Below, piece after piece: positions 14,790 to 61,138 of a stretch of DNA of 61,259 bases (positions are counted from its first letter, which is position 1; each line of letters begins with the position of its first letter). Made by a program: the position numbers and the translations under genes. Source of the DNA: Bryobacteraceae bacterium (GTDB taxonomy: Bacteria > Acidobacteriota > Terriglobia > Bryobacterales > Bryobacteraceae); assembly GCA_035561355.1 (NCBI GenBank), contig DATMXS010000269.1, positions 1 to 61,259 of the forward strand. The letters run 5' to 3'. The notes below the pieces were generated by a model. That model saw only the letters and a program-made list of their open reading frames with translations, was not told the DNA's origin and searched no databases.

Positions 14790-15938
14790 ATGTTTAAGGG
14801 CTTTCAGAAACCCAAGCGACTGGTTGCCAACACGGAATCGCTCACGGAACGCTACGGGCAGTTCACGGCGCAGCCGTTCGAGCGGGGCTTCGGCACAACT
14901 ATCGGCAACAGCCTACGGCGCGTGCTGCTGAGCTCAATCGAGGGCGCGGCAATAACGGCCGTGCGGATCGAAGGCGTTGCGCACGAGTTCAGCCCGATAC
15001 CGGGCGTGGTCGAGGACGCCACCGATATCATCCTCAACCTCAAGCAGATCCCGTTCAAAATGAGCGGCGAGGGCGTTCGAACCGTGCGTCTGCGGGTCGA
15101 TTCCCCCGGCGAGGTCCTCAGCAGCCAGATCGAAACGGACCACGACGTCGAAGTGCTGGATCGCACCATGCACATCGCGAGCGTCAGCGACGGCAAACTC
15201 GATATCGAGATGCGCCTGAAGCTGGGCCGCGGTTACGTGAGTGCCGACCGCAACTTCGACGAGGATCTGCCAATCGGCTACATCCCGATCGATTCCGTGC
15301 ACTCGCCTGTCCGCAAGGTCAACTTCGCGGTTGAGAGCGCACGCCTCGGCCAGATGACCGACTACGACAAGCTCACGCTGGACGTCTGGACCAATGGCGC
15401 GATCTCTCCGCAGGACGCCGTCGGCCAAGCGGCCAAGCTGATCAAGGACCACACCTCGATCTTTATCAACTTCGAGGAGTTACCCGAGATCGCCGAGGAG
15501 CCGGCTGAGCGCGGCCTGGACCAGATGAACGAGGTCCTGGACCGTTCGGTGGACGAGCTCGAACTGAGCGTTCGTTCCTACAACTGCCTCAAGAACGCCA
15601 ACATCCAGAGCATCCGCGACCTGGTGCAGAAGACCGAGGCCGAGATGCTCCGCACGAAAAACTTCGGGCGCAAGTCCCTCAACGAGATCAAGGAAATTCT
15701 TGGCGGGATGGGCTTGCAGTTCGGCATGAAGTTCGACGCTCAGGGACGGCTCGTCACCGGAACGGGCCAGCCCGTTACGCCGACCGCGCCGACAGGTGAG
15801 CGCGAGCGGTCGTACGACGAGGATGACGACGAAGAGGCCGACGAGGATGAGGACGAGGACGAGGACGCCGCGGCTGATACAACCGGCGAAGGCGAACTCG
15901 ACCACGAAAAGGAACACTACGAGAGTTTGAGCGAATAG
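14790..15938 (+). CDS. rpoA: DNA-directed RNA polymerase subunit alpha with an acidic Asp/Glu-rich C-terminal tail
   Basis: 382 aa. The alpha NTD and CTD ([21 protein letters not shown]) are recognisable. Tail reads [21 protein letters not shown]. Confidence 0.95.
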
Positions 15939-42245: not shown

Positions 42246-43025
42246 CTACAGTTTCAGCAGCGTCCGAAGCCTCTTCGTCTGCACCCGGCTCACCGGTATT
42301 TCCGTCTGTTTCTTGTCGTCCATGCGCAGCATGTAGCTCGACTTGAACCAGGGGATCACTTCCTTGATCCGGTTGATATTGACGAGATACGAACGGTGGA
42401 CGCGCCAGAACGTGTCCGGGTCCAGACTGGACTGAAGCTCTTCGATGGTCCTGTAGTTTGATTGACCCTCGAAGTGCAGGGTGGCGACTGTAATCAACCC
42501 GTCGTCGATGGTCGCGTAGATCACCTCATTCGCATCGACGATGAGGTTCCGGTTCGCACTCTTGACCAGCAGTTTGGTCCGGACCGGTCCTGGCCGGGGC
42601 GCGAGCGGCGCTTCCGCCGGCTGCGGTTTCGCGAGCTTTTCCTGGACGATCCGCCGGGCGCGATCGACCGTTAGAGCCAGGCGATCTTTATCGACCGGTT
42701 TGAGTAGATAGTCCAACGCCTCGAGGCGAAAGGCCTCGATGGCGTATTGCTCGTAGGCGGTAGCAAGGATGAAATAGGGAAGGGGTAGCTTCTTTTCCTG
42801 AAGCTTACGGATAACCCCCAGCCCATCCAGCCCCGGCATCTGAACGTCCAGAAACACCACGTCCGGCTCCAGATCCTCCACTTGCCGGATAGCTTCCAGA
42901 CCATTTCGGGCTGTGCCGATCACCTCAATGTCGGGGAATTCCCGGAGGAGATAAGCCAGCTCGTCGGATGCCAACTGCTCGTCGTCTACGATCAGCGCAC
43001 TCAATGATGTCGCGCGATCCGACAT
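42246..43025 (-). CDS. LytTR-family two-component response regulator (no cognate kinase adjacent)
   Basis: REC domain LIVDDE...VVFLDVQMPGLDGLGV plus a C-terminal LytTR DNA-binding domain (...FWRVHRSYLVNINRIKEV...). Internal start within ORF 42246..43274. Confidence 0.85.
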   Translation of the reverse strand: MSDRATSLSALIVDDEQLASDELAYLLREFPDIEVIGTARNGLEAIRQVEDLEPDVVFLDVQMPGLDGLGVIRKLQEKKLPLPYFILATAYEQYAIEAFRLEALDYLLKPVDKDRLALTVDRARRIVQEKLAKPQPAEAPLAPRPGPVRTKLLVKSANRNLIVDANEVIYATIDDGLITVATLHFEGQSNYRTIEELQSSLDPDTFWRVHRSYLVNINRIKEVIPWFKSSYMLRMDDKKQTEIPVSRVQTKRLRTLLKL

Positions 43026-43077
43026 GAGAGTGATAGTATAACATTTCGGTTTTACGGACTTTTCTAAGGAGGTAAGC

Positions 43078-44391
43078 TTGCCCGAAAATGTAAAAATCGC
43101 GCCCGCCGAGGGCAAGCTCGGGGTGCTAACCCCGGGCGTCGGCGCCGTTACGACGACCTTTATCGCGGGGGTAGAAGCCGTGAAGCGTGGCCTGGGATTG
43201 CCGATCGGCTCCCTTACGCAAATGGCCACCGTGCGGCTCGGAAAGCGTACCGACGCCCGGACCCCGAAGATCAAGGATTTCGTTCCGCTCGCCGATGTGA
43301 ACGACCTCGTATTTGGCGGCTGGGATATTTTCGAAGATAACGCTTACGAAGCCGCCACCAATGCCGGCGTGCTCGAGCCCTCGCTCCTCACCCAGCTCAA
43401 GGAGCCCCTGTCGGCCATCCAGCCGATGAAGGGTGTTTTCTATCCCGAGTTCGTCAAGCGCCTGCACGGGACCCACGTGAAGCAGGGCGGGTCCAAGATG
43501 GACCATGCCGAAGCCGTGATGGCCGACATCGAAGACTTCCGCAAGAAGAACAACTGCTCCCGCATGGTGATGGTGTGGTGCGGATCCACTGAGGTTTATC
43601 ATCTGCCCGCCGCCTGCCACCAGTCGCTGAAGGACTTCGAGTGCGGACTGCAGAAGAGTGACCCGGAGATCTCGGCCAGCCAGATCTACGCGTACGCGGC
43701 GCTCAAGTGCGGCGTCCCGCACGCGAACGGCGCCCCGCACCTCACCACCGATAACCCCGCCTTCCTCGAGCTTGCGAGGGAGCGCGCCATGCCTATCGGG
43801 GGCAAGGATTTCAAGACCGGCCAGACGTTCATGAAGACGCTGATCGCGCCCGGCCTCAAGGCCCGCATGCTCGGCCTCGAGGGTTGGTTCTCCACCAACA
43901 TTCTCGGGAACCGCGATGGCGAGGTGCTGGACGATCCCGGCTCTTTCAAGTCCAAGGAAGAAACCAAGCTCTCCGTGCTTCACCAGATTCTTCAGCCGGA
44001 ACTCTACCCCGAGCTGTACAAGGATTTCTACCACGCTGTCCGCATCAACTATTACCCGCCTCGCGGCGACGCCAAGGAAGGCTGGGATAACATCGACATC
44101 CGTGGGTGGCTTGGCTACCCGATGCAGATCAAGATCGATTTCCTCTGCCGGGACTCGATCCTTGCGGCCCCGCTGGTGCTTGACCTCGTGCTGTTCCTCG
44201 ACCTGGCCCAGCGCTCCGGCATGAAGGGCATTCAGGAGTGGCTCTCGTTCTACTTTAAGGGCCCGATGCACGCTCCGGGATTGTACCCCGAGCACGACAT
44301 TTTCATCCAGCTCATGAAGCTGAAAAATACGCTGCGTTGGATGCGCGGCGAGGACCTGATTACACACCTTGGACTTGAATATTACGACTAG
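43078..44391 (+). CDS. ino1: myo-inositol-1-phosphate synthase (archaeal/bacterial type)
   Basis: TTG start preceded by AAGGAGG. KLGVLTPGVGAVTTTFIAGV aligns with the MIPS Rossmann N-terminus. 437 aa. Confidence 0.85.
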   Translation: MPENVKIAPAEGKLGVLTPGVGAVTTTFIAGVEAVKRGLGLPIGSLTQMATVRLGKRTDARTPKIKDFVPLADVNDLVFGGWDIFEDNAYEAATNAGVLEPSLLTQLKEPLSAIQPMKGVFYPEFVKRLHGTHVKQGGSKMDHAEAVMADIEDFRKKNNCSRMVMVWCGSTEVYHLPAACHQSLKDFECGLQKSDPEISASQIYAYAALKCGVPHANGAPHLTTDNPAFLELARERAMPIGGKDFKTGQTFMKTLIAPGLKARMLGLEGWFSTNILGNRDGEVLDDPGSFKSKEETKLSVLHQILQPELYPELYKDFYHAVRINYYPPRGDAKEGWDNIDIRGWLGYPMQIKIDFLCRDSILAAPLVLDLVLFLDLAQRSGMKGIQEWLSFYFKGPMHAPGLYPEHDIFIQLMKLKNTLRWMRGEDLITHLGLEYYD

Positions 44392-55124: not shown

Positions 55125-56255
55125 CTATTCGAGTCTCAGTTCCGCCCAACCCGGCAGGGCCGCTGGCTCGCCATTGAGGAACACGATCCGGCGGGTCTTC
55201 GGGAACGGCAGGCCGGACTCGATAGCGCGTGTGAAGAACGGGATGTTCCGAAGCACCTGACGCTGTGCTTCGCTATCCGTCTCCAGCCAGCCTGTTTTCG
55301 CCAGGAGCCCGCTGCCCCAGCCCATCGACACGATGCAGCCGGCGCCGCGTACGGCCTCGAGGCGTGCGGATACTTCATCCAGGCTGCGCCGTAGCACAGC
55401 CAATCCCGCCTGCTCCGCATAGCGCTGATGGATCGCGATCAGACGGGCCGCGTACGCGTTCGCTGCTTCAAAGATGCTCGCCGAGTTCACTGGTCCGCGC
55501 CATCGCAGCGCGCGCACCACCTCGGGATTCGCGAGGAATGCGTTCTCCTTCCAAGCTCCTTCGAACACCGTTCCCGGCGCGGCCATTTCGGCGAACATCG
55601 GAGTGCCATCCTCGGCTCGCTGCACGGTGCCTTTGGGCGCCTGCTTCCAGCCGAGGTCGAAACGCCCGCCGCCGCGCGGGACGAGTGCAGACGTGCGCAG
55701 CAGGTAGAGGCGCATCGTGTCGTTGGCGCGCGGGCCGGAGTCGCCGACTTTGATCGCACGCATCACACTGGCGCCGCCAGTGCCGAGCGCGTTGTCCTCT
55801 GCAGCCTCACCGGAACGGCTGGATGGGCGCTCGCTCTGAACCTCGACGTGCGGCGGGGAGTCGCTCCAGCGCGCGAACAGCATGCCGGTTCGAAGCGCGC
55901 CTTTGAGGGCGCTGCCGGGCAGATACGGTCCCCCGGTGGCACTGGCGAAGGTCGGGATCGAGAGCGTTTCACCTCGCGCCTGCTCCCAGGCCTTGGCAAT
56001 GGACGGGTGCTCGAAGCTGACGCGCCGGTCGGCGTAATTCTGCGCGAAGCCGCCCCATGAAGCGAAATCAAGCTTTTCGGCCTTACGGATCTGTACGAGA
56101 TAGCCGTCGAGGCGCGGCCCTTTCGAGAGCAGCTTGAAGATGCGCTTCTGGTCCAGGACGTTCACCTGGTCCTTCCACACCATGTAATCGATCGGCGAGA
56201 GTTTGTTGCCATCGCCGACCAGCACGGGAGTCAGACAGGTCAGCCGATATCTCAT
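55125..56255 (-). CDS. csm5: type III CRISPR-associated RAMP protein Csm5 (Cas7 group)
   Basis: Internal start MRYRLTCLTPVLVGDG. G-rich loop GGPYLPGSALKGALRTG. C-terminal SMGWGSGLLAKTGW motif. 4-nt overlap with csm4. Upstream part of ORF 55125..56504 rejected. Confidence 0.8.
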   Translation of the reverse strand: MRYRLTCLTPVLVGDGNKLSPIDYMVWKDQVNVLDQKRIFKLLSKGPRLDGYLVQIRKAEKLDFASWGGFAQNYADRRVSFEHPSIAKAWEQARGETLSIPTFASATGGPYLPGSALKGALRTGMLFARWSDSPPHVEVQSERPSSRSGEAAEDNALGTGGASVMRAIKVGDSGPRANDTMRLYLLRTSALVPRGGGRFDLGWKQAPKGTVQRAEDGTPMFAEMAAPGTVFEGAWKENAFLANPEVVRALRWRGPVNSASIFEAANAYAARLIAIHQRYAEQAGLAVLRRSLDEVSARLEAVRGAGCIVSMGWGSGLLAKTGWLETDSEAQRQVLRNIPFFTRAIESGLPFPKTRRIVFLNGEPAALPGWAELRLE

Positions 56256-57307
56256 AGGACGTTGCCTGCCGCGCGCTCCGGCGCGCGGAGCGGTATGGGG
56301 ATGGCGACGGCAAAGCCGGCGCGATAAACTGGGTGCGGGAAGCCTTCGGGCGCAACGTCCCGCGCGGAGCCGCGCGGATCGCGAGCCGCCGCCAGCACCG
56401 ACCCTTCCTCCACCATCCGGACGAGTTTTTTCGAGTCGCCCGAGCCCGCCGGTGATTCCACGCGGCCTCCGCGGGTAACCAGAGAATAACCGCCGCGCCG
56501 CCAATCGACTGCATCTTCGGGAGACGGGTTGAACAGGGAAAGCAGCCAGTAGGCCGTCTCGACGGGCTCTTCCCCGTTGACGGCCTTTGGCTGTGAGGAA
56601 CCGAGAATCAAGCCAGGCAAATCGCCCTCAAGGAACTCCGGCTCATCGGAGCGGCCCCATCCGAGCGAACGCTCTCCCCCAAGGCCAGTATCGGCCAGCA
56701 GACGGAGCGCGCCCTGGACCGGCTTCGACCACTCGTCGCGGGCTGCCTCGTCCGAGAACCGCACCACGGCCCATAACCCCGAGTACGGTGCGAACTCCAG
56801 GCAGGCGGTGCGGTGTATCTCGATGGCGCCTGTCCTGATGCGATCCACCGCGGCGTGCGAACGCGTCACCGTCCGGAACGGACCGGAATGAAAATGGGCG
56901 TCTTCCGGCAGCAGGCAGCCGCTGGGGCCGTCCACATACCAGGAGTCCTCACTCAGGCTGCGGCCTGCGACCAAATCCTGGGCCGCGGCGAGCGGCACGA
57001 ACCGGGCGTTGCTCCATCGCACTTTCGGTGATGCGGGCGGTGGCCACATCGTGCGCGGCGGAGGCACGAAATGGGTCTCTTCGATGTAGGGAAAGCACGA
57101 ACTGAGCGCAACGCACGGGCCTTCGGGATGGCGGACGGTCGCATCGAGCCATTGTTCGAGCCGGCCCAGCCGCAGCATGGCGGTGGAGAGCGCAGAGAAC
57201 AGGGCGTCGCTGTGAAAGACGCGATCGACGCGGTCGCGCGCGCCCGCATGCAGCCCGATGCGCCACGGCCCGAGCGGACGGAACCGTACCACGAAGGCGG
57301 GATTCAT
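56252..57307 (-). CDS. csm4: type III CRISPR-associated RAMP protein Csm4 (Cas5 group)
   Basis: N-terminus FRPLGPWRIG...VFHSDALFSAL. G-rich loop GLGGERSLGWGRS. Confidence 0.8.
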   Translation of the reverse strand: MNPAFVVRFRPLGPWRIGLHAGARDRVDRVFHSDALFSALSTAMLRLGRLEQWLDATVRHPEGPCVALSSCFPYIEETHFVPPPRTMWPPPASPKVRWSNARFVPLAAAQDLVAGRSLSEDSWYVDGPSGCLLPEDAHFHSGPFRTVTRSHAAVDRIRTGAIEIHRTACLEFAPYSGLWAVVRFSDEAARDEWSKPVQGALRLLADTGLGGERSLGWGRSDEPEFLEGDLPGLILGSSQPKAVNGEEPVETAYWLLSLFNPSPEDAVDWRRGGYSLVTRGGRVESPAGSGDSKKLVRMVEEGSVLAAARDPRGSARDVAPEGFPHPVYRAGFAVAIPIPLRAPERAAGNVL

Positions 57308-57310
57308 TGC

Positions 57311-58144
57311 TTACGCTTCGAGACGGCCGCGGATCTCGTTGAGTGCCGTGCGCAACGCGGCAGTATCCGCCCCGGTCAGCAATTCGGCCTCACCGCCCTG
57401 GCCCGAGTAATAGTTGCGGTCGCGCCACATGACGTTCAGGTTAGCGAATCGAACGCGGCCGCTTCCGCGCGAACCGCCGCCGCCCAGCGCATCGTCTTCG
57501 AGTAACGAGAGCCCTTCCACGACTAGGGGCAGCAGGTCCTTGTCGGCATCGCACAGGATGTCCAGAACGAACCGCACGCGGAAGCGCGCGCCGGCCGGGA
57601 CCCGCTCCAGCGTCCGCGGATTGGCCTGCGATGTGATGCGGTCGATCGCGTTCTCGCTCTTCACCTCAGTGAGCTCGTCATCGAGGTTCTCGCGCATCTG
57701 CGGAGTGATGCTTTCGGCTACCAGGGGCGCGTCGTACACGGCGAGGCGCGCTGGCGTGGAGTGCGATGTTTCGAGCGGCTCACCGCCGCCCACGCGTTCC
57801 ATCCGCCCGGGATTGCGGCCGAACAGCAGGCAGACCTCGTCGTCCGGACGGTCGCTCTGGTGAATACGGACCTCCTGGCCCTTGCGGCGCGAGAGGTAAA
57901 CGAGTTCGCCGGTCACCGTCGCGCCGAGGCTCTGCTCCACAAGAGAGCGCAGCTTCCCGCGCAAGGAGCTTCCGGGCACGTAGGGCCGGCCGAAAGCATC
58001 CTTCACTACGGGATTGTCGGCGCCCCCGATTTCGAGCGAGCCTTTCCCCGCGCCGATGTGCAGCCCGGTCTCGCAAATCAGCTCTCCATCCAGGATGAGC
58101 TTCCCGATGAGTTTCAGTTCGGTGTCGGCAGTGTGCGCGCTCAT
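57311..58144 (-). CDS. csm3: type III CRISPR-associated RAMP protein Csm3 (Cas7 backbone subunit, catalytic Asp retained)
   Basis: GLHIGAGKGSLEIGGADNPVVKD with the Asp of the RNA-cleavage site. G-rich loop GRPYVPGSSLRGKLRSL. Confidence 0.85.
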   Translation of the reverse strand: MSAHTADTELKLIGKLILDGELICETGLHIGAGKGSLEIGGADNPVVKDAFGRPYVPGSSLRGKLRSLVEQSLGATVTGELVYLSRRKGQEVRIHQSDRPDDEVCLLFGRNPGRMERVGGGEPLETSHSTPARLAVYDAPLVAESITPQMRENLDDELTEVKSENAIDRITSQANPRTLERVPAGARFRVRFVLDILCDADKDLLPLVVEGLSLLEDDALGGGGSRGSGRVRFANLNVMWRDRNYYSGQGGEAELLTGADTAALRTALNEIRGRLEA

Positions 58145-58147
58145 GAG

Positions 58148-58621
58148 TTACTCGTTGTAGGCGACGATAGCCTCGAATAGGTCGCGGAACCGCTCGTAGC
58201 CGCGAAGGTCATTCTTTCTGGTTACCTGGAGCAGTAACTTCTCGAGAGCATCCAGGCTGCGGAGTTGGTGCCGCGCAATCGTATAGGCAAGCCGGGCCCG
58301 CAGCATGACGAACTGGTGCTGGCGATCGGCTTCGGGCGCGAGGCAGGCGCGCCGAACCGCATTGTAGAAGCGGCGAAGCTGGCTTTTGGTGCCGGAGTCC
58401 ATGTCGCGCATCCGGCTCACCACACTGTGCGCCTGGTTGTCCAGGTACAGCGGGTCGGTGATCAGCTTCTCGAGTTCGATTTCAGGCGGACCTTCGGGAC
58501 GCCGGTCCCCTCCGCGGAAACCACCCTCGCGCGGCGGACCTCCGTAGCTGCGCCCTTCGGCTCTGCCTTCGCGGCCCTGCCCGGGCGGCCGCCCTTCGCG
58601 TCTATTCTGCACATCCGCCAT
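58148..58621 (-). CDS. csm2: type III small subunit Csm2 (Cas11) with an Arg/Gly-rich N-terminal extension
   Basis: Helical core ...KSQLRRFYNAVRRA...VMLRARLAYTIARH. N-terminal ~50 aa reads RREGRPPGQGREGRAEGRSYGGPPREGGFRGGDRRPEGPPE. The start could alternatively be Met 58654. Confidence 0.7.
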   Translation of the reverse strand: MADVQNRREGRPPGQGREGRAEGRSYGGPPREGGFRGGDRRPEGPPEIELEKLITDPLYLDNQAHSVVSRMRDMDSGTKSQLRRFYNAVRRACLAPEADRQHQFVMLRARLAYTIARHQLRSLDALEKLLLQVTRKNDLRGYERFRDLFEAIVAYNE

Positions 58622-58626
58622 GATGT

Positions 58627-60072
58627 TCAGACCTCGGTAGAAAGTCTCGCCCATTCAAGGGCCACCAGCCCTGCGGGCCGGAGTTTTACTTGTGCAGCCC
58701 CCCGGCTCATCATCTCACTCGCCAGATGCGCGCGGAGCTTCTGCACTTCGCGCTCGCGCGCGCCGGTTACGATCCGGTTCAAACGCTGAGTAAACCGCCA
58801 CGGCCGCTGAATCCGTTGCTCTGCACCGTGTGCCGACCATAGCGACGCACCCTTTCGATACAGAGCGCCGAGTTCGGCCAGAAAATGCGGCGCCGCGCCG
58901 GCTTCGGCCGACATGCGCGAGAGCGTATCTTTGAGGTCGGCCGCGTCGGCCAGGCGCCGCCACTCCAGCACGCGACCGAACAGCGCCATGCAGTCCTTGT
59001 CGGTGTTTTTCGCCTGATCGAGTTGCCGCCCCGCCTCGGTATGAATGCCCGCCAGGGTAGAACTGGCATCAGGCGCGAGCGCGACCGCCATTGTGATCGT
59101 CTTGCCCTCGGCCCCGGGGAAGTCCTTCAACATCTCCTCTGTGAACCGATGGAAAACCCGCTGCATCTCGCGGGCGAACGGGATCAGCGCATCCCATGAG
59201 CCGTAGACCGCGAAGTCATCGCCTCCGGAATAGAGGACGCTCACTTTCCGCCAGAACTCGGGCTGCGAACAAAGCACGCTGAGTTCACCGGCGAACAACT
59301 GTTTATAGACGACCGACAGCCGGACGTGATCCTCAATTGTGTGGACGCGGCGGATGCGGACCCGCATGCTGTCCACATCGCCTCTCAAAACTCCCCACGT
59401 CTTACGGCCTTGCGCCCGGGCCGCGAGTTCTTCGAGGGTTGCGGGGGCTGTGCCGTTGCGCCCGGGCGCGGCGTGCCGGGCGAGCGGGATCGCATCTTCG
59501 CCACGGTCCGGCAGCAGACTCCAGGTGTACTTGCCGCCGCCAATCGCAATGTGGGCGGGCCGTTCGGGCGACCATCCGGCTGTTTCGGTCTGCCATAGCG
59601 CGCCGGCGAGTTCGCGGAAGTAACCGTCGTTAGGCGAGGAGGAGGCAGGTGGCTCGAAGGGCACGAAGTCCACGGCTTCGGGCGCCGCGGCCAGCTTGCG
59701 CTGCATCTCTTCCCCGAGCCGCCGGCGGACCACGGACCAATCACCGAGGTTTTCCGTGATGGCCCAGACCAGCCTGAGCAGCCCGCCGCTCATGGCGTCG
59801 ATTTCCCCGCCGGCCCTGAGCAAAAATTCGTCCGCGGCCTCGCGCGATTCGCCCGGGAGCACCAGCAGGAACTGGCCTCCGCCGCTCGATCCAAGCAGTA
59901 CGCGGGCGAGGCGGAATTCCGCCAGGAGCGCGCGCGGCAGCGCCTCGCTCAACAGCATTACCCAATGGGAACGGCCGATCAGGGCGGATGTCGAATCACC
60001 CGTGGCGGGACAGGCGAGGAGGAGATCTTCTATACCCAGCAGCTTGCCGTACAGAAGGATCTGAACAGACAT
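58627..60072 (-). CDS. cas10: Cas10/Csm1 large subunit, minimal 481-aa form lacking the HD domain and zinc finger, with an intact GGDD cyclase palm
   Basis: WGVLRGDVDSM (D-x-D metal site) and VSVLYSGGDDFAVYGSWDALIPFA (the GGDD...GxWD Palm2 signature of Cas10). A degenerate Palm1 remnant (LLGSSGGGQFLLVLPGE) and a C-terminal helical D4-like region. No His/Asp HD motifs and no CxxC pairs. Confidence 0.75.
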   Translation of the reverse strand: MSVQILLYGKLLGIEDLLLACPATGDSTSALIGRSHWVMLLSEALPRALLAEFRLARVLLGSSGGGQFLLVLPGESREAADEFLLRAGGEIDAMSGGLLRLVWAITENLGDWSVVRRRLGEEMQRKLAAAPEAVDFVPFEPPASSSPNDGYFRELAGALWQTETAGWSPERPAHIAIGGGKYTWSLLPDRGEDAIPLARHAAPGRNGTAPATLEELAARAQGRKTWGVLRGDVDSMRVRIRRVHTIEDHVRLSVVYKQLFAGELSVLCSQPEFWRKVSVLYSGGDDFAVYGSWDALIPFAREMQRVFHRFTEEMLKDFPGAEGKTITMAVALAPDASSTLAGIHTEAGRQLDQAKNTDKDCMALFGRVLEWRRLADAADLKDTLSRMSAEAGAAPHFLAELGALYRKGASLWSAHGAEQRIQRPWRFTQRLNRIVTGAREREVQKLRAHLASEMMSRGAAQVKLRPAGLVALEWARLSTEV

Positions 60073-60234
60073 GGAAGGTCTACTCTAACACAGCAAGGGG
60101 AGATCGAAGCGCTCGAACTGAAGACCAGCGCCGGTGCGCACTGCTCGCCGGAGTCATACCGGCCGCGGGCGGTTTCGCCAGCGAAATGGTGACCGCCGTG
60201 TCATTCGGCACCGGCGAGCGGCGCATAATGAATC

Positions 60235-60478
60235 GTGATGACGCGAATCTGGCGAGAGAAGCTCGGCCGTCGCGATGACGCCGATCGGGATTTCGACATC
60301 GACTTCTGGCAGCAACTGGGGCCCGCCAGGATCGTCGAGGCAGCCTGGGATCTTGTGGTCACGGCGGCCTCCGCAAAGGGCATCGATGAAAGCCAACTCC
60401 GACTTCAGAGATCTGTTGAAAAGCTTAAACGCATTCGACGTCCGGTATCTGGTCATCGGCGTACGCGGTGATGACTGA
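60235..60478 (+). pseudogene. frameshifted fragment resembling the N-terminus of a nucleotidyltransferase/DUF6036-type protein
   Basis: Two overlapping reading frames. One reads SDFRDLLKSLNAFDVRYLVIGVRGDD, then stops. No intact ORF of normal length. Confidence 0.25.
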
Positions 60479-60521: not shown

Positions 60522-61138
60522 CTATCGGGCGGCAGAACGATGAAACATCATCGAGCCGTTCATGCTCTGCGCGTGAAGATCGGTGGAGATAACGCCCGGC
60601 CAGAAGCCTGCGGTGACAGCCGGCGCCGCGTTGCGAAACACGAAGCTGCCGCCGCCGTGGCCCACATCGAACTTTACACCGCGGTCACGAGCGGTCTTAA
60701 GATATGCGTATAAGTGACCCTGTTTGTCGACCCAGGGCACCGACGCGCGGTAACAGTGTGTCGAGATGTCTCCGGGGCGCAGTCGTTCCGTAACAAGCTG
60801 CCAGTAAGGACGTCGTACTGCTGCGCCGATGCAGACACTGCAAGGAGAAACATTGCAAGACCTTTCATCCTCAGGACTCCGAAATGACGGTGCAGGGGCA
60901 CGTGAGTACAAGCTGTCGCTCGCGCGGCTGTGTGTTTGGAACGCTGCATGCATGCACATTGCGTACCGTACCGGGCTGAGCTCCTAAGCGCATGTAACAA
61001 AGGTGTAATAGATAACAGCATCCTGATCCATGCCTTTGATCGCCCACATAGAGATTTTTGGAGGAATGCGCCAGCTTCTTTGATAGAATAGACAGCAACC
61101 CAACTCGGGAAAAGAGGGATGTAACGAAAAGATGGCAA
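60522..61138 (-). pseudogene. disrupted secreted hydrolase-like gene (signal peptide in one frame, amidohydrolase-like fragment in another)
   Basis: Frame A reads MKGLAMFLLAVSASAQQYDVLTGS... (signal peptide), stopping at 60674. Frame B reads ...GVKFDVGHGGGSFVF...VISTDLHAQ and continues to 60522. Confidence 0.25.

Follow-up and report, generated by a model that had tools for sequence, protein, structure and literature searches.

The stretch of DNA analysed here (the window: 61,259 nucleotides of contig DATMXS010000269.1, from the Bryobacteraceae bacterium assembly GCA_035561355.1) carries five tightly packed minus-strand genes at 55125-60072 that are a type III-A-type Csm effector module of a clustered regularly interspaced short palindromic repeat (CRISPR)-Cas system, with the signature gene csm2 present. 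Its Cas10 is a short form, and judged by comparison of its sequence with those of its relatives the operon is an undescribed, widespread, lineage-restricted type III-A variant. Type III effectors are understood as immune sensors guided by CRISPR RNA (crRNA). The present module probably amounts to more than a defence locus orphaned in the usual way. The reading we prefer, though we would give it somewhat less than an even chance, is that of a functional, self-contained and lineage-fixed Bryobacterales Csm complex whose guide has a source other than a CRISPR array and which has been exapted for RNA surveillance or regulation; it is weighted slightly above guidance in trans by crRNAs from a distant array.

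The first-pass annotation of this DNA had proposed five packed csm genes on the minus strand at these coordinates, and both positions and spacing stand: the window open reading frames (ORFs) are separated by gaps of 5, 3 and 3 nt, with one 4-nt overlap. The gene for the short Cas10 (csm1, 481 aa) lies at 58627..60072 (-). The ORF of csm2, encoding the Cas11 small subunit, spans 58148-58654 (-), and its probable true start is Met12 at 58621 (giving 58148..58621), placed there because a MAD or MAE start is conserved among relatives. It is followed by csm3 at 57311..58144 (-), encoding the Cas7 backbone RNase subunit with its catalytic Asp43 in GGADNPVV; by csm4 at 56252..57307 (-), encoding the Cas5-type subunit that pairs with Cas10; and by csm5 at 55125..56255 (-), encoding the Cas7-like cap subunit, which starts MRYRLTCL and accounts for the 4-nt overlap with the csm4 stop.

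Hidden Markov model searches bear out the Csm identity that the annotation had claimed, since Pfam, NCBIfam and PADLOC assign the five proteins to Cas10/Csm1 and Csm2 to Csm5, an assignment that a profile alignment to structures in the PDB supports for Cas10. Pfam matches on the module include Cas10 palm2 (1.5e-15), a weak Csm1_B, Csm2_III-A (PF03750, 6.7e-11), RAMPs and Csm4_C, the last of these on Csm4. NCBIfam scores exceed the cut-offs for Csm3 (TIGR02582, 201 bits against 90), Csm4 (TIGR01903, 138 against 55), Csm5 (TIGR01899, 77 against 38) and Csm2 (TIGR01870, 42.9 against 30.6). The PADLOC models for type III-A match all five proteins, with 3e-62 for Csm3, 1e-26 for Csm5 and six separate Csm2 models matching Csm2. 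Every motif that had been named for Cas10, Csm3, Csm4 and Csm5 is found in the window translations, among them YSGGDDFAVYGSWD in Cas10 and GSSLRGKLRS, which comes after GGADNPVV in Csm3; GLGGERSLGWG, GSALKGALRTG and GWGSGLLAKTG are present as well.

The short Cas10 consists of Palm1 (residues ~1-130), a reduced middle, Palm2 with the GGDD motif (~221-365) and a C-terminal helical D4. No HD domain is matched by Pfam in the window Cas10, whose sequence starts at Palm1 and lacks the whole HD nuclease region. When a 24-member family profile is aligned with PDB structures, residues 5-98 correspond to residues ~270-355 of canonical Csm1, that is, to the start of Palm1, including its RS and SGGG(Q/H) motifs, and residues 221-417 align with Palm2 and beyond in solved Csm1. 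All 24 aligned family members share the residues D232, D285 and D286, with the GGDD cyclase site intact. Just two cysteines are invariant in the same alignment, so the usual zinc finger has probably gone. The NCBIfam model TIGR02578 scores 142.6, under its cut-off of 170, with the best-scoring stretch confined to model positions 490-750. An AlphaFold2 model of the protein is of moderate quality (pLDDT 66, the C-terminal helical domain being poorly resolved), and its top Foldseek matches are all type III-A Csm1 (E = 3e-15).

Proteins of this kind (450-530 aa) form a large and distinct family. Cas10 relatives of 473-510 aa number in the thousands in the protein database, under the JGI name Csm1, and the NCBI names, where given, are Bryobacteraceae or Acidobacteriota. 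In a search of 1.84 billion cluster representatives, identity to full-length relatives (450-530 aa) reaches as low as 36%, and canonical Cas10 proteins of 758-795 aa come up only at E ~1e-28. Exact-sequence look-ups of the window Cas10 and Csm3 find no identical entry in the protein collection searched.

A scan of GTDB species genomes recovers 80 loci, nearly all of them labelled Bryobacterales, Bryobacteraceae, Terriglobia or Acidobacteriota, and a metagenome scan adds 80 further loci of the short-Cas10 module. No relatives are found in plasmid, phage or IMG/VR collections. The order of the five genes is kept in essentially every locus that is long enough (40 out of 40 such loci in the metagenome set), and even divergent members, with Cas10 only 36-39% identical, have the same arrangement. 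The ratio of nonsynonymous to synonymous substitution (dN/dS) is 0.005-0.24 in each of the five genes (Nei-Gojobori, 8 locus pairs, dS 0.15-1.4), and 77 of 79 loci have retained Asp43 of Csm3. Values of dN/dS this low mean that the module genes are maintained and not decaying. Matches to csm genes by tblastn are broken or partial in some loci from long-read metagenome-assembled genomes (MAGs), namely L029, L031, L043, L059, L070, L072, L077, L081 and L084, as would result from Nanopore frameshift error or from occasional real decay of the module. A literature search found no description of this short-Cas10 Csm variant, and the text of the 2025 classification (PMC12669027) and its available supplements contain no equivalent of it and no mention of Acidobacteria.

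The small subunit is unusual in two respects. In the window, Csm2 opens with a low-complexity N-terminal tail of ~40 residues rich in Arg, Gly, Glu and Pro (58463-58621, minus strand), which precedes a helical core of 115 residues. A tail is present in 80 of 80 loci examined, varying from 40 to 200 aa, with a composition rich in Arg, Gly, Glu, Pro and Asp and with repeats of REGG, GDR and RGG-like type. We found no precedent in the literature for a Cas11 with an Arg/Gly-rich tail. The core, for its part, has a median identity to the window of 87%, compared with 75% for Csm3 and 54% for Cas10, Csm4 and Csm5, and it remains 74-85% identical even in those loci where Cas10 is 36-39% identical. This degree of conservation is notable because Cas11 proteins are normally among the least conserved of the Cas proteins. 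In one divergent member (L093:2983-4077) Csm3 carries an extra N-terminal extension of ~100 aa, acidic and rich in Ser, a second disordered appendage, here on a backbone subunit.

The first-pass annotation had also described the window as free of any array, cas6, adaptation gene or effector gene responding to cyclic oligoadenylate (cOA). Neither TRF nor a repeat finder nor a spaced k-mer scan, the last of which recovers a synthetic control array, finds a CRISPR array in the window. A PADLOC scan of 92 window ORFs yields no match to Cas6, Cas1, CARF, Csm6, Csx1, SAVED, Can or NucC; the ORF set comprised nearly all those of at least 150 aa plus four shorter ones at 60.1-61.1 kb, so other short ORFs, such as a Cas2 would occupy, fell outside it. 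The module's own five proteins served as the positive control for the library, and flanking ORFs in the window gave only generic matches, MotB-like and similar. The description is thus borne out, with the proviso that ORFs of Cas2 size were mostly outside the scan. The Pfam-annotated neighbourhoods of four relatives (L001, L002, L089 and L091) likewise show no cas6, cas1, cas2, CARF or SAVED families.

That such an absence is itself exceptional, as the annotation further supposed, overstates the case. For roughly 28% of type III cas loci the nearest 10 kb hold no array, and such loci are termed 'isolated' (PMC5294841), and most type III systems use Cas6 in trans, with many III-B, III-C, III-E and III-F loci lacking arrays (PMC12669027). 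The interest of the locus comes from other features: the recurrence of the bare operon, in the same order and with an HD-less Cas10, at more than 160 related Bryobacterales loci, the strong purifying selection on it and its housekeeping neighbourhoods. 

The array scans of relatives covered about 2.5 Mb of flanking DNA. The 84 genome-derived loci together with the window (1.57 Mb) contain no CRISPR array: six CRISPR-like matches in the genome loci were all rejected as coding tandem repeats such as IPLPPPDPD, and candidates in metagenome loci L158 and L168 likewise proved not to be arrays. A tandem repeat of ~15-16 nt (CAGGAAGGGCACAGT-like) between csm3 and csm4 in one relative (L014:13433-13600) is not a CRISPR array either. 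A genuine array is present in two of the 80 metagenome loci (0.83 Mb), L109 and L111, which belong to one species. The repeat, GTCGCGCGCGACACCCCGAAGAGAAGGGGACTGAAAC, occurs 35-41 times, and the spacers, 35-38 nt long, differ between the two samples. The array lies on the same strand as the module (L109:19-2960; L111:11-2517), ending ~7 kb upstream of cas10 and running off the contig end, past which any cas genes of its own would have to be. The end of the repeat, a stem plus the 8-nt ACTGAAAC, is similar to a Cas6-type handle, and the repeat looks processable by Cas6. Between array and module are genes for a DUF3592 protein, an oxidoreductase, a TPR protein and a VWA protein, and no cas genes. 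In a third locus of the same species (L110) the contig begins 540 nt after the array. Two sister species (L108 and L114) share the intervening synteny and have no array at that site. The linkage of array to module is lineage-specific and could be due to chance.

No linked gene for a guide RNA was found by blastn of the flanks or by Rfam and tRNA scans, the latter giving no match in the window. Binned blastn of the 500-nt flanks and all-versus-all blastn of the loci detect no conserved non-coding element by the module except one that resembles a promoter. A strongly conserved 20-nt block upstream of cas10 was considered as a guide or other non-coding RNA and rejected, as in the alignment it corresponds to an extended -10 promoter and the first part of the 5' untranslated region. 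The promoter-like extended -10 element in the window, TGTGTTAGAGT, is at 60082..60092 (-), 9 nt upstream of the cas10 ATG, and an element of the form TGTGnTAnAnT is found at the equivalent position in most of 31 aligned loci. From this conservation we regard it as the putative promoter of the operon; a generic scan for sigma-70 promoters and terminators does not call it. The distance to the ATG is 9 nt in the window versus 25-40 nt in most relatives, which implies that the cas10 mRNA in the window may be leaderless or nearly so.

Clustering of flanking ORFs over 84 loci shows only the five module genes to be universally conserved. The annotation had located the window module between an S41 protease and decayed gene fragments, and so it is: on the csm5 side are genes for a PDZ-S41 protease, a TonB-like protein and a ceramidase-like protein, and on the cas10 side (60.1-61.26 kb) is a patch without intact genes, in which the guanine-plus-cytosine (GC) content falls to 0.625. 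The patch includes a truncated pseudogene of an amidohydrolase/deacetylase-family metallohydrolase (60522-60959, minus strand; residues ~190-284 of a 383-residue model) and small overlapping ORFs (60154-60478) with no family match. The S41 protease was considered as a Craspase-like partner and rejected, as it is not conserved beside the module in any relative. Elsewhere in the window, a GAC/GAG-rich tandem repeat with a 12-nt period (15814-15874) is probably Asp/Glu-rich coding sequence unrelated to the module.

Among relatives the Pfam-annotated neighbours are housekeeping genes that vary by lineage, with partial synteny retained: frr, pyrH, tsf, rpsB, rpsI and rplM at L091; tsaD, queA and ffh at L089; dnaG and rpoD at L111; and sodA, ftsK and uppP at L001. 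In 28 loci an XrtA/PEP-CTERM-associated ATPase of 290 aa (TIGR03015, AAA_22) is encoded 70-150 nt 3' of csm5 on the same strand (for example L036:15242-16096 and L089:15199-16074), followed in ~20 loci by a TPR lipoprotein and a LytS/LytTR pair. There is no such ATPase beside the module in the window, where a LytTR gene is found at 42246-43274. The ATPase was rejected as a module partner, being PEP-CTERM-associated and absent from the window, and its proximity in 28 loci is therefore treated as ancestral synteny. The synteny that is retained may be read as stable chromosomal inheritance with local rearrangements.

By analogy with solved Csm complexes, Csm4 and Cas10 would form the base of the complex, Csm3 and Csm2 its two filaments, and Csm5 its cap. 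The RNA on which the complex assembles would not be encoded in cis. Its pairing with a complementary RNA would lead to cleavage of the latter by Csm3, and the same pairing would turn on the Palm pocket of Cas10, producing a nucleotide second messenger for an unlinked receptor. The complex could not cut DNA, because the HD domain is absent. At this level the mechanism, to go by the homology to solved complexes, would be identical whether the guide came from a distant array or from somewhere else. Under the array-independent reading the guide would be a host-encoded or heterogeneous RNA, captured with the aid of the Arg/Gly-rich tail of Cas11. Stated in full, this describes a domesticated, complete and catalytically active Csm complex, independent of arrays and of Cas6, that uses a non-CRISPR RNA with help from the Cas11 tail and couples RNA surveillance or regulation to signalling by Cas10; this fuller proposal is slightly less probable than the general reading.

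The array-independent reading is favoured because conservation is broad and uniform, the context is housekeeping and partly syntenic, and dN/dS is very low; because more than 160 loci have no linked array, cas6, adaptation or effector genes and the module is not on mobile elements; and because Cas11 is hyper-conserved and has its Arg/Gly-rich tail. The reports on Ellin6076 and strain F-183 (see below) and the existence of accepted array-less class 1 derivatives (PMC8730458) also count in its favour. Its closest rival, itself quite plausible although placed second, is that the module is an ordinary type III defence effector, an 'isolated' cas locus guided in trans by crRNAs from a distant array with the help of an unlinked Cas6 or host RNase, which would cleave invader transcripts and make cOA for an unlinked CARF or SAVED effector. 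Several points weigh against array independence, and some of them speak for this rival. The canonical catalytic residues are all retained, and in every catalytic and structural feature the module matches a canonical Csm complex with a crRNA guide. Among type III loci, isolated ones are frequent (PMC5294841), Cas6 in trans is the rule (PMC12669027), and type III loci commonly borrow both Cas6 and crRNAs in trans (PMC12669027; PMC5294841); for a type III-B system of Marinomonas, trans use of type I crRNAs has been shown experimentally, according to the passage in PMC7145637 that cites the work. At least one carrier species (L109, L110 and L111) has a large array of 35-41 repeats, Cas6-like in its repeat and sample-variable in its spacers, 7 kb upstream of the module on the same strand. 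Arrays are often lost from MAG assemblies, and since the array scans covered the window and the locus flanks, arrays elsewhere in the carrier genomes stay compatible with what was observed. An alternative guide was not found in locus flanks or window scans, and production of cOA would need a receptor, of which none was found near the module. Conservation is measured in locus counts and not as the share of Bryobacterales genomes carrying the module. Finally, the pairwise divergence of the module correlates weakly with that of the neighbouring ATPase (Spearman 0.14-0.24), and the case for vertical inheritance therefore comes from synteny alone.

Against guidance in trans there are, the one species with an array excepted, the more than 160 loci near which neither an array nor cas6 nor an ancillary effector lies, and that single array is missing from the same site in sister species which have the intervening synteny in common. 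Order-wide conservation, housekeeping context, low dN/dS and a hyper-conserved Cas11 are atypical of patchy, fast-evolving defence genes, and the module was not found on plasmids, phages or viral contigs. Reports on two cultured relatives bear on array independence. No CRISPRs occur in the nearly complete genome of Bryobacteraceae strain F-183 (PMC8759368), and for Ca. Solibacter usitatus Ellin6076, which belongs to the Bryobacterales, the complete genome of 9.9 Mb was reported to have cas genes and no CRISPR (Challacombe et al. 2011, PMC3174227). The latter would argue against a distant array if those genes are the present module; their numbering, Acid_0891 to Acid_0895, would fit cas10-csm2-csm3-csm4-csm5, and no mention of the locus tags was found in other literature. 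A homologue search that started from a 'Ca. Solibacter usitatus' MAG, and cluster look-ups of ten Csm3 sequences, yielded no names of isolates. In 2011 the orphan cas genes of Ellin6076 were interpreted as the relic of a lost system (PMC3174227). For the window, a decaying relic of a lost CRISPR-Cas system would agree with the lack of an array or partner genes and with the pseudogene patch immediately upstream, but five intact ORFs, conserved catalytic residues, the recurrence of the operon at more than 160 loci and the conservation of its promoter-like element make it very improbable, and it is rejected on the evidence of purifying selection on each of the five genes (dN/dS 0.005-0.24). It is also unlikely, if less so, that RNA guiding has been lost and that the Csm scaffold now acts as a regulatory platform on which the Cas10 cyclase answers a cue other than base pairing. 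An invariant GGDD, the failure of flank and locus blastn to find a guide source in cis, and the joint absence of HD domain, array and cas6 would all suit such a guide-independent signalling enzyme. However, the RNase Asp of Csm3 and the whole RNA-binding backbone (Csm3, Csm2 and Csm5) are the most conserved parts of the module, which argues that RNA binding and cutting is the activity under selection, and no receptor for a signal was found nearby. On balance the comparative evidence tilts towards domestication, without proof.

Either of the two leading readings would have consequences. If the module is guided in trans, it offers a clear case from nature of dependence, over the long term, on crRNAs made elsewhere in the genome. 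If it is exapted, it would be an RNA-guided or RNA-sensing signalling machine in a cellular role, extending the known CRISPR exaptations to type III, and the questions become which RNA it carries, which messenger it makes and what senses that messenger. Should domestication be true, the module would be the first case of a type III effector exapted with both enzymatic activities kept. For the engineering of minimal Csm complexes, the compactness of the 481-aa Cas10 and the Arg/Gly-rich tail of Cas11 hold interest too. The Bryobacterales are an abundant order of soil bacteria with cultured relatives that include Ellin6076, Bryobacter and Paludibaculum.

Canonical III-A systems (those of S. epidermidis, S. 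thermophilus, T. onnurineus, M. tuberculosis and E. italicus; the structures compared were PDB 6MUA, 6IFN, 7V00, 9G9A and 8WFX) have the same five subunits in the same gene order as the window. They have in common with it the Csm2 signature subunit, the catalytic Asp of Csm3 and a Cas10 with Palm1 and a GGDD-bearing Palm2, and it is on canonical III-A Csm1 structures that the Cas10 model superposes best. The window Cas10 differs in lacking the N-terminal HD region of ~265 aa and any evident conserved Cys pairs for a zinc finger, and the locus differs in having no adjoining array, cas6, csm6 or CARF gene, or cas1-cas2. In the window family, moreover, Cas11 is Arg/Gly-tailed and, instead of being the least conserved subunit, is the most conserved. 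Of canonical loci the nearest is L092 (GC 38%), whose proteins are only 25-43% identical to those of the window: its Cas10 bears an HD domain and is 31% identical over the C-terminal half, its Csm3 is 43% identical, and its Csm2, at 138 aa, has no tail.

Type III loci that borrow crRNAs, such as the Marinomonas III-B locus using I-F crRNAs, likewise have no array, cas6 or adaptation genes of their own. HD-less Cas10 proteins with an active cyclase exist, and the III-B system of Vibrio metoecus has an HD-less Cas10 together with NucC. In such loci, however, a donor CRISPR-Cas system co-occurs and a cOA effector is part of the locus, and their distribution is patchy, often on mobile elements, whereas here there is no linked donor or effector and the module is found lineage-wide in housekeeping contexts.

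Reductive evolution of type III is known from III-G, III-H, III-I and the variant III-A2 (PMC12669027), and the short-Cas10 module resembles them in this respect. III-G also has no array or adaptation genes and is restricted to one lineage, the Sulfolobales (PMC12669027). The direction of loss is reversed: III-G and III-H keep an active HD domain and are without the Cas7 Asp, while the window module has kept the cyclase and the Cas7 Asp and lost the HD domain. An inactivated or lost Palm cyclase marks III-G and III-H as well as III-I, and a Cas7 Asp that is not conserved marks III-G and III-H; in the present family GGDD is invariant and the Csm3 Asp conserved. III-A2 has no identifiable Cas11, and NucC in some of its loci, whereas the window family has Cas11 in every locus examined; a NucC model has no PADLOC match among the 92 window ORFs.

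Array-less derivatives of class 1 systems are an accepted category. Its known members are type IV-B, the haloarchaeal HRAMP and a Streptomyces I-E derivative that has a STAND NTPase, and each is limited to a single lineage or to mobile genetic elements (PMC8730458). Like the module described here, these are lineage-restricted Cas5/Cas7 complexes without arrays or adaptation genes; non-canonical functions have been proposed for them (PMC8730458), and type IV-B binds heterogeneous small RNAs along its Cas11 filament. Type IV-B has Csf1 in place of Cas10, a CysH-like gene and a plasmid or other mobile location; the window has a bona fide Cas10 in a chromosomal housekeeping context. IV-B, HRAMP and the I-E derivative either have lost Cas10 or their catalytic sites or are highly diverged, and IV-B is plasmid-borne. 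The window module, by contrast, is a complete and catalytically intact type III effector with a place in the chromosome.

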